Shown here: one piece after another, positions 18,100 to 22,686 of the stretch
Layout: each line of letters opens with the position of its first letter
Position numbering within the stretch: position 1 is the stretch's first letter
Origin: Promethearchaeota archaeon
GTDB lineage: Archaea > Asgardarchaeota > Lokiarchaeia > Sigyniarchaeales > SOKP01
DNA length: 64,000 bases
Direction: 5' to 3'
Assembly: GCA_019058445.1 (NCBI GenBank)
Contig: JAHPZA010000006.1
Coordinates: forward strand, 544,001-608,000
Program-made: the position numbers and the translations under genes
Notes under the pieces: model-generated
What the model was told of the DNA's origin: nothing
What the model saw: the letters and a program-made list of their open reading frames with translations, nothing else
Database searches by the model: none

Positions 18100-19311
18100 A
18101 TGAAAGCTGTAGAAATATCTGCTGAATGGTCTCCAAAACCGAGTTTTAAACTCGGTTCTAAAGATATTGATGGCAAACTGACTTATTTAGGTTCCCAAGT
18201 ATGGAAAAATCCAGTAGTAACGGTTATTGACGATAAACCGATTCCAAAAATCAAGCCAAATGAAGTTCTATTACAAGTGAAAAGATGCGGAATATGTGGT
18301 TCTGATGTTCATATGGCTCAATCATATGATGATGGATATATCTATTATCCGGGATTAACTGCGTTTCCTGCAACCCTCGGTCATGAGTTTGCTGGTGAAG
18401 TAGTAGAAGTTGGCAGCCAAGCAATAAATAAGAGGACTGGCAAATTATATGAGAAAGGTGAACCTGTAACTGTGGAAGAAATGGTGTGGTGCGGTGAATG
18501 TAAGCCATGTTGTGACGGATTCCCAAACCATTGTGAAAGATTGCAAGAAATAGGATTCTCAATTGATGGAGCTTTTGCTGAATATATTGCTGTCCCTTCT
18601 AAATTATGTTGGAGTTTAAAAAAATTGGAAGGAAAGTATGAAGATATATATAAAATAGGCAGTTTAGTCGAACCAACTTCGGTAGCTTATAATGCTGTTA
18701 TAGAAAGAGGGGGAGGGATTAGACCGGGTGAGAATGTTGTTATTTTAGGAGCTGGTCCAGTCGGTTTGGCTTCTGCTCGTATTTTGAAAACTGCAGGAGC
18801 TGCACTTTGTATTGTTTCTGAGCCTAACGAGCATCGAGCAAAATTTGCTAAAACAATGGGTGCTGATTATACAATTAATCCTCAAAAAGAAAACTTTGTA
18901 GAGAAAGTAAAGGAGTATACCGATAACGATGGAGCTGCTTTATATCTTGAGGCAACAGGACTTCCTCAAGTAGTTACAGAGGATATTCAAAACTGTATTT
19001 GGGAATGTAAATCCGTCAATAGTACTGTTGTTATTGTGGCAAGGGCAGAGCAGAGAATGCCTGTTTGCGGTGAATATTTTCAAGTAAGAAGAGCCCGAAT
19101 TGTTGGTGCACAAGCTTAAATAGATCTCCTATTTAAAATGTATGGCCACAGCGGGCACGGAACCTTTCCAAATGTAATTAGTTGTATGGCTGCTGGAATG
19201 GACATGACACCATTGGTTACAAAAGAGATCTCATTAGATGATGTACCAGAAAATTTAAAATTACTTCAAACGGATAGGGAAAATTGCAAAATTTCTGCCA
19301 AAATTAACTAG
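18100..19311 (+). CDS. iolM: scyllo-inosose 3-dehydrogenase (Zn-dependent MDR); join(18100..19113,19144..19311), 393 aa after removing a 30-nt insert
   Basis: Motifs CGICGSD, LGHE, CGECKPCCDGFPNHC and GAGPVG. The expected IVGAQ-GHSGHGTFP junction is split by an in-frame 30-nt insert containing TAA. The downstream part is intact to TAG at 19309-19311. Confidence 0.85.
19114..19143 (+). other. Putative 30-nt BHB-type mRNA intron in iolM
   Basis: Sequence gcttaaatagatctcctatttaaaatgtat. Contains an 8-bp stem ttaaatag/ctatttaa, central helix gcac/atgt (3 of 4 pairs), bulges AA|G and AT|G, and exon stem tggt/gcca. Cutting at these points gives CAA-GGC (Q-G). Confidence 0.75.
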
Positions 19312-19316
19312 ATTTT

Positions 19317-21485
19317 TTAAAAATCATCTATTTTTTTTTGATTTTCTTTTTCATATTTATGGATTTTATTAAATTCTACTTTTAGTTGAGCATGGTTTTC
19401 TAAAAATTTCTTTAACTCTTTTTTATGATTTACTTTACAATAGTTAGAAAGCTTAATTTTCAAATCTTTTAATTCCCTTAAATTGGATGTAATATTGTTT
19501 TTCGTGACAACAATATTATTTATTACTATGTTATGGAAGATTTTTCTTTCTTCTTCGTTAAAATCCATTATTTCAGCAAATAAGTCATGTCGGATTATTA
19601 TAACCCTTTTAGAATACAAATTTCTTTCTTTTTCCGAAATTTTAGCATTCTTAGGAAAATCTATAACTTTTAAAGGCATATCTGAAATACCAATAATAAA
19701 AAGTAAAGTATAAGGTGTATAATATTTTCTAGCTTTATCTAAGATATTTTCTTCATTCAAATTACTAGTAAAATCGAATAAGATAATTTTATATTTAAAC
19801 AAATCTAATTTCAATTTAACAAGATTATCTCTAATTTTTTGAGTGAAATCTTTATTGACTATTAATAATCCATCAATTCGGTAGTTATAATTAAGAAATA
19901 TTACAATTTCAGAATAATATAGACTTCCCAGTTTCCTGGTCATTAAAAAATTGATACATTTATGAGAAAGAATACCTATATTTCTATATTTAGCAAAATA
20001 TGTATCGTTAAAACGGATGTCATATAAGGTAGGATTGAGGATTTTTTTCGCAATATCAGTTATAGGTCGTCTACTTACCCCATATGCCTTAGCAATTTTA
20101 GTTAGAGATCTTCCATTTTCAAAATCTCTAATCTCATTAACTATTTCGGAAATATCATTTATTAAATCTATTTTTATACCAATATTATCACTTATCACTT
20201 CTATAGAGATTCCAAGCTCCAAATCATTAATGATTTTATCCCTAAGGTCTATATTAGATAATGTGTTATAAAAACCCAAGAAATTAGCAATTTTTTGAAT
20301 TTTTTTTCGTGGTATATTATATTTTCTGGCAATATCCACGGGTACCCATTTATCTATTAACATCCTATATAATATACAATTTATAATTTCATTGTTCCTG
20401 TTGATTGAAACTACTTTTTTTATGGTTTCATCATAGTCAATGTCTTGATTTTTTGTCCAAGTCTTAAAATCACTTATAATCTTAAAACTATGAATAGGGC
20501 GAATTAAATACTTATCAGATTTAATGCTTAAACTGTACTCTTTTAATAAAAATTGTAATTTAGGATTATTAAAATTCTGAAAGCTAATTTCTGTTATTTT
20601 ATCATCTAATATATCCTTAGCAATCTTCATTATCTTTTCTTTAGTAATTATATCTCGTCCTCTCTTAAGGAGCTTTATATATTTCGAGACGGTTGATTTT
20701 GAAATGCCTGCTCTTTTTGCTATTTGTCTGGCACTTTCTTCTGTTTGAATGATTCTATGTACAACAAATTTTACAATCTCAGAATTTCTATTAATTATTT
20801 CACATTTTTTTAGAATCTCATCTTTATTCAATTTAGACGAATAACCATCTAAAATATTTATTAATTTAGATTCATCAATATTTTTTATCCATAGTGCAAA
20901 CTCTCTTGTAATTCTAACCACATTATATGGAGAGTTAGTTCCTGATATATTTCGATAATATTTTAGTAATCTCTGAAATTGGGGATGAGTAAAATTTTTA
21001 AATTCTATTCTTTCAATGTTTTCTGCTACTTTAATTATATAATTGTCGGAGAAAGTATGTTTAAATCGATTATCAAATTTATTCTTAATTACAATTTTAG
21101 CTATTTGATTTAAAGTTGAATCAGTCATATGAAATTTTTCCTTCAATTCTGTTAATGAAACTCCAAAAACGAAATCAATAATATCTAAAACTAGAAGGAA
21201 ATGATCTTCAATTGTTTTAAAATTAACGTTGCGCCTATCAGTTTGTATTCTCGAACATTTATATTTATTGACAAAATCATGAAATTTATTATCAATTTCC
21301 AAGAAAATTTTTTCATATGTTGGATTTTTGAATAATTTCTTATTTCTTCTTATCTTAATGATATCATTTAAAATATGAACGAATTTATAGGTTTCTCTAA
21401 TATTCAACTCTTTTTTTAAATTTATAATAAAATGATTTAATTCCAATATTAGTTTTTTCCGTTCAAATGATATTCTTTTTACCAT
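19317..21485 (-). CDS. Multi-HTH protein with C-terminal PD-(D/E)xK-like nuclease domain and PIP box (putative free-standing endonuclease)
   Basis: HTH-like motifs SLTELKEKFHMT, SARQIAKRAGISKSTVSKY, PVDIARKYNIP, SIEVISDNIGI and SLTKIAKAYGVS. Nuclease-like stretch GILSH..SE..RIDG..LFDFT..DKARKY. Ends in QKKIDDF. Confidence 0.6.
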   Translation of the reverse strand: MVKRISFERKKLILELNHFIINLKKELNIRETYKFVHILNDIIKIRRNKKLFKNPTYEKIFLEIDNKFHDFVNKYKCSRIQTDRRNVNFKTIEDHFLLVLDIIDFVFGVSLTELKEKFHMTDSTLNQIAKIVIKNKFDNRFKHTFSDNYIIKVAENIERIEFKNFTHPQFQRLLKYYRNISGTNSPYNVVRITREFALWIKNIDESKLINILDGYSSKLNKDEILKKCEIINRNSEIVKFVVHRIIQTEESARQIAKRAGISKSTVSKYIKLLKRGRDIITKEKIMKIAKDILDDKITEISFQNFNNPKLQFLLKEYSLSIKSDKYLIRPIHSFKIISDFKTWTKNQDIDYDETIKKVVSINRNNEIINCILYRMLIDKWVPVDIARKYNIPRKKIQKIANFLGFYNTLSNIDLRDKIINDLELGISIEVISDNIGIKIDLINDISEIVNEIRDFENGRSLTKIAKAYGVSRRPITDIAKKILNPTLYDIRFNDTYFAKYRNIGILSHKCINFLMTRKLGSLYYSEIVIFLNYNYRIDGLLIVNKDFTQKIRDNLVKLKLDLFKYKIILFDFTSNLNEENILDKARKYYTPYTLLFIIGISDMPLKVIDFPKNAKISEKERNLYSKRVIIIRHDLFAEIMDFNEEERKIFHNIVINNIVVTKNNITSNLRELKDLKIKLSNYCKVNHKKELKKFLENHAQLKVEFNKIHKYEKENQKKIDDF

Positions 21486-21641
21486 ATTTTTTTATTTTTA
21501 AATAATCAAGAGTATAATTTAATGGTCTAAAAATCATCTAACGTTTTTAATACTAACAGTAACATAATTTATTTATTTTTAAAAGAAAACCAGATATGAA
21601 TTGAATATTAAATTTTGTTTTAATTAGACTAATCAATGAAG

Positions 21642-21685
21642 GGACATATTGGTCATGGAACGCTTCTTATGTGATTTCTTGTATA
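21642..21685 (+). pseudogene. Degenerate relic of the start of iolM exon 2
   Basis: gga cat att ggt cat gga acg ctt ct- tat gtg att tct tgt ata = GHIGHGTLxYVISCI, versus GHSGHGTFPNVISCM in the functional copy. Confidence 0.8.
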
Positions 21686-21694
21686 TTTACTTCA

Positions 21695-22477
21695 TTAATG
21701 ATAATAGTCTATAAATTCTCCTTCGATTTTCTTAAAAGGAATTAGCTTAAATAATTCTTCGAAAAGATAATTATAGGTTTCTAAATCAAAAATTTTAAAC
21801 TCAAATGAGTATTTCTGAAAATCTCCTTCATCTAAATTGTTAAAATAATCAAAATATAATCCAATTTTATAATAATCTGTATAAGTGTGATCGACAGTTA
21901 TTGTTTTAATGTTAAATATATTGACAAAAATATATTTTTCAGTTAAATTAAAATTTTTTTTTGAATACTTAGATTTCAATTCTAAATAATTCTTAAGTTT
22001 CTTTTTCGGATAATTTTGAATCCATCTTTTATTAGTTAATATTTTATCTCTTCTAGTATCTGTTAATTTTTTATTTAAACCATATGTTCTGAATAAAATC
22101 CTTTCATCTCTTTCTAAATGATCGAATATTTCTGTTCTTGCTAAGATCATATTAATGCACTTAAGAACTGCAGGTATTATTTTTTTTTTAAAGGATTTTT
22201 TTGGCACAGCATAACCTTGCTCCCTTCTTCCTTTATAAAATATGTTTAATACACCATTTTCGACTTTAAATATAATCTTAAATAAAAAGTTCTTTGTAAT
22301 TAATTTTAATGTTGTCGATAAATGTTCACGAGGGCCATATTCTTTTATATTATAGCGAGATCTTTTAGTACCATAAATATTTGCTGTAATATTTCTCACA
22401 AATTCATCAAAAACTTCATTGATATCCTTCAGATATTTGTCTAGTCTAACAATTAGTTCTGGCTCTTCTTCCATCAT
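21695..22477 (-). CDS. Hypothetical protein (orphan, AT-rich)
   Basis: 260-aa ORF with no recognisable motif. Confidence 0.65.
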   Translation of the reverse strand: MMEEEPELIVRLDKYLKDINEVFDEFVRNITANIYGTKRSRYNIKEYGPREHLSTTLKLITKNFLFKIIFKVENGVLNIFYKGRREQGYAVPKKSFKKKIIPAVLKCINMILARTEIFDHLERDERILFRTYGLNKKLTDTRRDKILTNKRWIQNYPKKKLKNYLELKSKYSKKNFNLTEKYIFVNIFNIKTITVDHTYTDYYKIGLYFDYFNNLDEGDFQKYSFEFKIFDLETYNYLFEELFKLIPFKKIEGEFIDYYH

Positions 22478-22551
22478 CTTTCGTACAAATTTTTATAAAA
22501 AATGAATTGAATTCAAACTATTTGTTTAAAGTTAAAAAGAAATTAGAATTT

Positions 22552-22686
22552 ATAAATGCGATGGCAGCGGGTATGGATATGACACCCATGGTTACCAAAG
22601 AAATTAGTTTAGATCAAGTTCCTGAAAATCTCAAGCTTTTACAAACAGATCGAGAAAATTGTAAAATTTCTGCGAAAATAGCATAA
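22552..22686 (+). pseudogene. Displaced second copy of the iolM 3' end
   Basis: (INA)MAAGMDMTPMVTKEISLDQVPENLKLLQTDRENCKISAKIA*. 38/41 aa and about 93/126 nt identical to 19186-19311. Confidence 0.9.

Follow-up and report, generated by a model that had tools for sequence, protein, structure and literature searches.

A displaced gene end at iolM of an Asgard archaeon and the probable insertion of a cassette at the site of a 30-nt mini-intron

The closest published architecture to the one described here is that of fungal mitochondrial endonuclease ORFs with a carried C-terminus, known from atp6 of Allomyces macrogynus, from atp6 and cox2 of Phlebia radiata, and from rps3 of Ophiostoma (PMC4019555). 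Next in likeness is the collaborative or trans homing of phages: in cyanophage S-PM2, F-CphI adjoins the group I intron of psbA (PMC6083498), and mobE of T4 mobilises the I-TevIII intron (PMC2790892). For tRNA-type introns in archaeal protein-coding genes, the bulge-helix-bulge intron in the crenarchaeal cbf5 pre-mRNA is the documented case in the literature that we found (PMC2738675), and a 2026 census of Asgard tRNA introns gives no general route by which they arrive (bioRxiv 10.64898/2026.10.13.758758).

The window analysed here is a 64,000-nt stretch of an AT-rich genome of 4.6 Mb (31% GC; hereafter G000), and the records of its close homologs bear the name Promethearchaeota archaeon, i.e., Asgard. 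Positions 18100-19311 constitute iolM, encoding scyllo-inosose 3-dehydrogenase (NCBIfam NF041097). Its exon 1, 338 codons on the plus strand (18100..19113), alone scores 427.7 bits against the IolM model and is followed by the 30-nt insert (19114..19143), with an in-frame TAA, that forms the left end of a cassette, and then by a replacement 3' part, E2a (19144..19311), which site patterns and identities to the relatives G003 and G002 mark as foreign to the native allele of the genus. The next gene, on the minus strand (19317..21485), encodes a 722-aa protein with multiple helix-turn-helix (HTH) modules by Pfam and, from a fold model, a PD-(D/E)XK-like C-terminal domain; it is a candidate endonuclease. 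The upstream region of that gene is a 156-nt AT-rich spacer (21486..21641), the right end of the cassette. Overall, 2.5 kb (mini-intron, foreign tail with its stop codon, convergent 722-aa gene, and spacer) separate exon 1 from a 43-nt relic on the plus strand (21642..21684), made up of codons 339-352 and 2 nt of a displaced native tail. The rest of that tail (22561..22686, plus strand; codons 353-393 and the stop codon) is intact and is split from the relic by an 876-bp insertion (21685..22560, minus strand) carrying a 260-aa orphan gene (21695-22477). A PALP gene follows the second tail fragment; in G002, which belongs to the same genus and has an empty site, it directly follows an intron-less iolM. 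The iolM tail is present in 71 of the 154 genomes of the order, and the gene is uninterrupted in most of them.

As in the fungal ORFs (PMC4019555), an endonuclease gene, here a candidate one, brings a foreign C-terminus for its host gene that is joined to the 5' part already in place, and the original gene end is moved downstream, where it decays. The iolM locus differs in that the host is an archaeal chromosome and the tail is joined not in frame but through a 30-nt insert of predicted bulge-helix-bulge type; furthermore, the fungal endonucleases are GIY-YIG or LAGLIDADG proteins, whereas the iolM candidate nuclease is a multi-HTH protein with a modelled PD-(D/E)XK-like domain. The likeness to the phage systems is that a free-standing endonuclease gene adjoins an intron without an endonuclease of its own and that the intron position is the site of the DNA event. 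The phage introns, however, splice themselves as group I ribozymes and leave no displaced copy of an exon, whereas the iolM intron is 30 nt long and would depend on host enzymes, and a duplicated tail remains. In work from 2009, F-CphI reportedly cuts at the intron insertion site. We know of no nuclease gene, replacement exon, or displaced exon described in association with the cbf5 intron, unlike the iolM intron, which is accompanied by a candidate nuclease gene and by both a replacement and a displaced tail, although its splicing is predicted. The two cases are alike in being short introns of tRNA-splicing type in an archaeal protein gene whose presence or absence varies among relatives (PMC2738675). 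The iolM locus is thus set apart from the known systems by its archaeal chromosomal host, by the type of candidate nuclease, and by a joint formed by a 30-nt intron that host enzymes would splice.

The relic encodes GHIGHGTL and, after a 1-nt deletion in codon 347, YVISC, where the start of exon 2 reads GHSGHGTFPNVISCM / GHSGHGTFPNVISC; 10 of 15 residues are in common. The earlier note had read a match to the first 15 codons of exon 2. This was borne out for 14.7 codons from the start of an iolM 3' part, including the deletion, but the final I is not homologous. When 21486-21694 was aligned with the spliced iolM of relatives, the best local DNA score was 45, compared with 24.0 +/- 2.7 in dinucleotide shuffles (z 7.8); none of 3000 shuffles reached 45, and the claimed match is therefore significant. 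Blastn of the relic against G002 gave 80% identity over 46 nt (E 5e-4). An nhmmer profile of the relatives scored the relic at 9.8 bits, fifth in the 4.6-Mb genome, with a genome-wide E of 0.61 that alone is not significant, and tblastn with the eight unbroken residues gave an E of 0.68. The nhmmer match is on the right strand and falls within the 3.4 kb separating the two strong iolM copies; its alignment spans profile positions 149-194, and the homology of the second fragment runs from profile position 193. The relic is nearest to the intron-less allele of G002 (35/44 nt, versus 30/44 to the E2a of its own genome). Homology begins at position -2 relative to the junction (AG|GGACAT in the window, CAG|GGACAT in G002), and the last two bases of the spacer, AG at 21640-21641, are possibly part of the displaced tail. 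The earlier note had seen no clear exon-1 homology upstream of the relic, and none was found in 21486-21639 (P 0.47).

The second fragment (22561-22686) is an intact copy of the last 41 iolM codons (tblastn E 2e-20), 87% identical in nucleotides to G002, with 14 synonymous codon changes and one non-synonymous. Because the G002 positions matched by the relic (2513-2558) and by the second fragment (2557 onward) are contiguous in that intron-less allele, and are 876 bp apart in the window, both the relic and the fragment belong to a single old tail. The displaced tail is placed with G002 in a tree (support 97/97; 85-87% identity). Relative to G002, the relic has four disruptive and three synonymous codon changes and the second fragment one and 14 (Fisher P 0.02); decay in the first piece amounts to one frameshift and three amino-acid changes. 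It is thus well supported by these alignments that the relic represents the real start of an original, G002-type, intron-less iolM tail that was displaced.

The last Met codon of the relic is split (AT|...|ATG) by the cassette of the 260-aa gene. The same 876-bp insertion occupies the same junction in G003, where the 260-aa protein is 77% identical. That homolog is the only one; Pfam, PHROGs, NCBIfam, and atlas searches gave no match to the 260-aa protein, and it has no similarity to the LAGLIDADG protein of G060 described below. Comparison of the alleles shows the orphan-gene insertion to have evidently come after displacement of the tail, which it split. Between G000 and G003, the second fragment differs at 4, 2, and 11 sites in the first, second, and third codon positions, i.e., mainly the third; the pattern of the second fragment would fit either a recent displacement or residual constraint on it.

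The origin of the functional gene was followed at informative sites. Over 18100-19050, G000 agrees with G002 at 119 sites and with G003 at 56; over 19096-19343, agreement is with G003 at 48 and with G002 at four, and in the new tail (19144-19311), the corresponding numbers are 30 and two. E2a is 95% identical to G003 but only 77-79% to G002, whereas exon 1 shares 87-97% with G002 over its final 250 nt, and the native G002-like type continues in exon 1 up to ~19090. A G002-like exon 1, a G003-like new tail, and a G002-like old tail together imply that a native G002-type gene received a foreign block, and the site patterns show this block as starting at the intron site or within ~25 nt upstream. 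Two of the switch sites, 19104 and 19107, fall in bases read by eye as pairing in the splicing helix of the intron. Because the left switch (19090-19096) overlaps splicing-helix bases in this way, co-conversion of exon 1 is unproven, and selection could mimic it.

The insert that follows codon 338 is absent from G002 and from about 10 other relatives, and is found at the same site in G003, G005, G021, L021/L022 (where it is 29 nt), and L023. G005 and G021 have the intron only. An 8-bp hairpin is predicted, and a possible bulge-helix-bulge register was read by eye, with 3-nt bulges (AA|G and AU|G) set 4 positions apart, 3 pairs, and one mismatch; changes in the stem in G021 and L023 preserve pairing. 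In G045 and L022, the 29-nt insert must be removed for the reading frame to continue. The 30-nt insert is a putative bulge-helix-bulge intron, which would be cut out by tRNA-splicing enzymes. Exon 1 of iolM contains further inserts that form 29-30-nt hairpins, at L035:1570-1598 (G017) and on the reverse strand of L006 at 1703-1732 (G021). The former comes after codon 63 and interrupts the RCG|ICGSD zinc motif, and the latter is ~16 nt further on; there are therefore several mini-intron sites in iolM. Six other genomes have the same 336-aa open iolM frame as at the G017 insert.

One relative, G003, lacks part of the cassette. It has the same intron, new tail, 260-aa insertion, and second fragment, but the 722-aa gene and the spacer are missing, as is the greater part of the relic. 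The G003 junction lies between two GATTT motifs (19340-19344 and 21673-21677 in the window; L013:2397-2410) and retains only GTAT from the end of the relic; G003 is, as judged from this junction, a deletion derivative that lost ~2.33 kb between the two motifs. The deletion looks like the loss phase of a cassette life cycle. Homologs of the 722-aa protein (52-61% identity) were found in G045 (= L021/L029), L022, and L023/L024, only beside an intron-bearing iolM, and none accompanied the intron-less iolM alleles examined. L023 and L024 are separate contigs of one metagenome that abut within the 722-aa gene and probably represent one locus. Exon 1 of L023 is G022-like, at 96% identity falling to 84%, whereas its new tail is not. 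L024 contains the start of the 722-aa gene, a 215-nt spacer, and an intact old tail, which groups with the intron-less G022 in a tree (support 95/93) and which, with 1.3 kb downstream, is colinear with G022 from junction position -3 (86% over 1.5 kb). The cassette is thus found in two clearly different native backgrounds, a G002 type (G000) and a G022 type (L023/L024). At L023:1043-1055, the 722-aa homolog is matched in two overlapping frames, reflecting either a frameshift, i.e., decay, or an assembly error.

The old tail of G045 (L030) starts 20 nt inside the tail (profile position 171), and the boundary of the displaced tail is therefore at -2, -3, and +20 in G000, L024, and G045, respectively, in a small sample of carriers of which several lie on short contigs. 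A breakpoint exactly at the intron position had been proposed in the earlier note. The coincidence itself survives, at 0-2 nt from the junction in the window and at -3 in L024, and supports the site-directed event that the note had deduced from it; its exactness does not survive, given the boundary 20 nt inside the tail in G045.

Sequence libraries (Pfam and others) detect only HTH modules in the 722-aa protein. Its C-terminal 238 residues constitute a family that is joined to variable HTH arrays in other metagenomic proteins. A model of this domain, built from 25 sequences (pLDDT 88, pTM 0.86), has an alpha-beta-beta-beta-alpha-beta core, and its best 50 structural matches are mostly nucleases of the restriction-endonuclease fold (PD-(D/E)XK), at moderate Z values of 4.1-5.7; among them are the R2 element endonuclease, EcoRII, PspGI, McrC, Can2, Card1, Bse634I, Cfr10I, BglII, and BamHI. 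Conserved positions of the domain are E42, D54, D87, T89, K100, and K103. The whole 722-aa model (pLDDT 61) gave helical or insignificant matches only with Foldseek and VIA-align, and a PDB sequence search with the family profile returned nothing. It is plausible, from the domain model, that the 722-aa protein is a site-specific nuclease. A 609-aa paralog of the C-terminal domain family is encoded elsewhere in the genome (G000:C9:347999-349828; E 1.7e-13), between two genes that resemble the alpha and beta subunit genes of a 2-oxoacid:ferredoxin oxidoreductase, normally direct neighbours. Inspection of the surroundings of this paralog and of distant homologs in G024 and G016 revealed no displaced gene ends.

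A canonical homing-endonuclease family gives the same architecture at iolM in G060, without an intron. At this locus (L031:2786-5772, G060:C19), iolM has no intron, and the next gene, convergent and of 471 aa, matches LAGLIDADG_3 above the Pfam cut-off (E 3.4e-9); 1.7 kb downstream, the last 36 iolM codons recur as a displaced copy. The functional end of this iolM is 70% identical to that of its relative G019, compared with 76-88% for the rest of the gene. The G060 and G000 cassettes share the target gene and the order of functional tail, convergent gene (of an endonuclease family in G060, a candidate in G000), spacer, and displaced tail fragment; they differ in that G060 has no intron, has its boundary at tail codon 20, and employs a canonical homing-endonuclease family. 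The four LAGLIDADG-like loci of G000 itself showed no direct flanking duplication.

It is highly probable, as a description, that a native gene without an intron received a cassette at what is now the intron site and that the tail so displaced was later split. The explanation that we prefer for the whole, a displaced tail resulting from a homing-like, break-initiated insertion at the intron site, is favoured with some reserve. The candidate nuclease of the cassette would cut an intron-less iolM at or near the intron site, and a carrier allele would serve as template for the repair, exon 1 providing the homology on the left. On the right, the broken end of the old tail would be ligated to the distal side of the cassette or pair with it, so that the resident tail would be displaced rather than replaced. 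The 30-nt intron would prevent the junction of exon 1 and the new tail from re-forming the target site in DNA, and would itself be removed from the mRNA by tRNA-splicing enzymes. Taken alone, this nuclease-driven mechanism, which was deduced from comparison of alleles, falls a little short of even odds. A shade more tentative still is the suggestion that the multi-HTH PD-(D/E)XK-like protein founds a new, free-standing family of Asgard homing endonucleases driving a 'home-and-rescue' cassette of mini-intron and replacement exon, with the intron shielding the junction. Loss of the gene in G003, the apparent frameshift in L023, and the intron-only alleles of G005 and G021 make up a pattern of gain, decay, and loss that speaks for the preferred explanation.

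The alternative that survives best, though we consider it unlikely, is that a single illegitimate rearrangement, not specific to the site, joined a foreign tail and its neighbour gene to exon 1, the 30 nt being spliceable filler. All carriers would then be related by descent, with spread by ordinary homologous recombination in which the old tail served as the right arm, and breakpoint and intron would coincide, the intron itself being the junction, without any site-targeting nuclease. If the intron arose as the junction, the coincidence of breakpoint and intron is automatic, and if the old tail acted as a homology arm, the shared boundary could stem from a single founding event. In favour of this, every intron-bearing allele either has the 722-aa gene or is derivable from an allele that has it, the old tail follows the native type of the recipient as arm-mediated recombination predicts, and the nuclease role of the 722-aa protein is that of a candidate from modelling. 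However, the 722-aa gene is intact, includes a nuclease-like domain, and has remained linked at 50-60% amino acid identity in several lineages; passive crossovers would be expected anywhere in the 1-kb exon 1, whereas the left switch in G000 is within ~25 nt of the site; and the same architecture is made in G060 by a canonical homing-endonuclease family.

Elements that target the 3' ends of tRNA genes insert by attP x attB crossover and supply a replacement 3' end. An integrative element of this kind, with a recombinase-mediated crossover at the junction, would account for the order of 5' gene part, element-borne 3' part, element, and original 3' part, and for a boundary that is reproducible within 3 nt in two backgrounds. 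We nevertheless regard it as improbable: Pfam, NCBIfam, and PHROGs detected no tyrosine or serine recombinase domain in either the 722-aa or the 260-aa protein, where HTH matches are all that was found; the junctions share at most 3 nt (CAA / AAG; CAA / CAT) and have no att core; and the G045 boundary is off by 20 nt.

Less probable again, and very much so, is the idea in the earlier note that the relic stems from an older copy with an intron, which decayed in place ahead of that copy's tail, one site having been invaded successively. It arose from a loose resemblance of ttaattag-a-ctaatcaa, just ahead of the relic, to the intron hairpin, and the 10-mer AGCTTAAATA of the intron 5' end is also found again at 21744. 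Compared with four intron variants, however, the 30 nt before the relic (21612-21641) do not rise above random AT-rich 30-mers of the genome (P 0.46-0.49) and are at chance against shuffles (P 0.60-0.66); nor do they form a hairpin (MFE -0.5 kcal/mol, z +1.36) like the 8-bp one of the true intron. In addition, the relic is preceded by AG as at the intron-less G002 junction, its nearest allele is intron-less, and nothing intron-like precedes the old tail of L024. The decayed intron at 21612-21641 was consequently rejected as a chance resemblance. Successive invasions in G000 were abandoned with it because the relic and 22561-22686 are one displaced tail, not the products of two events.

Several other resemblances were noted nearby. 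At 21744-21758, inside the 260-aa gene, AGCTTAAATAATTCT agrees at 13 of 15 bases with the last exon base and the intron 5' end (19113-19127), which is likely to be chance, given the composition. The motif ATGAATTGAAT (21597-21607 and 22503-22513) stands with similar bases ahead of both old-tail pieces, and a related motif, ATGAAATTCAAAC, occurs in the L024 spacer; as a 'cassette end', the motif at 21597 and 22503 was rejected, since the local alignment was marginal (P 0.07) and the genome contains 15 instances of the 11-mer. A stretch of the spacer that might have been copied from the iolM 3' flank (21515-21548) was likewise set aside (P 0.07). An in-frame ATG AAG precedes the displaced tails in both the window (21636-21641) and L024 (reverse strand, ~1001-1021), and in L024 a start at this point yields an intact 62-codon ORF, MKKFLKH and then the tail.

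That the relic is a random match in AT-rich DNA or an error of assembly, for which the genome-wide nhmmer and short tblastn E values might be cited, can be dismissed, given its score relative to shuffles, the strand that it shares with the second fragment, the exact contiguity of the two in G002, the retention of its last bases in G003, and the same architecture in independent assemblies. The relic is a pseudogene fragment, and its value is as evidence for an insertion event: it marks the point at which the resident gene was opened, and this is the intron site. Taken together with the empty allele in the same genus, it shows that the intron arrived as the leading edge of the 2.5-kb cassette. 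If true, the home-and-rescue reading would constitute a DNA-level route by which tRNA-type introns enter protein-coding genes and spread in them.
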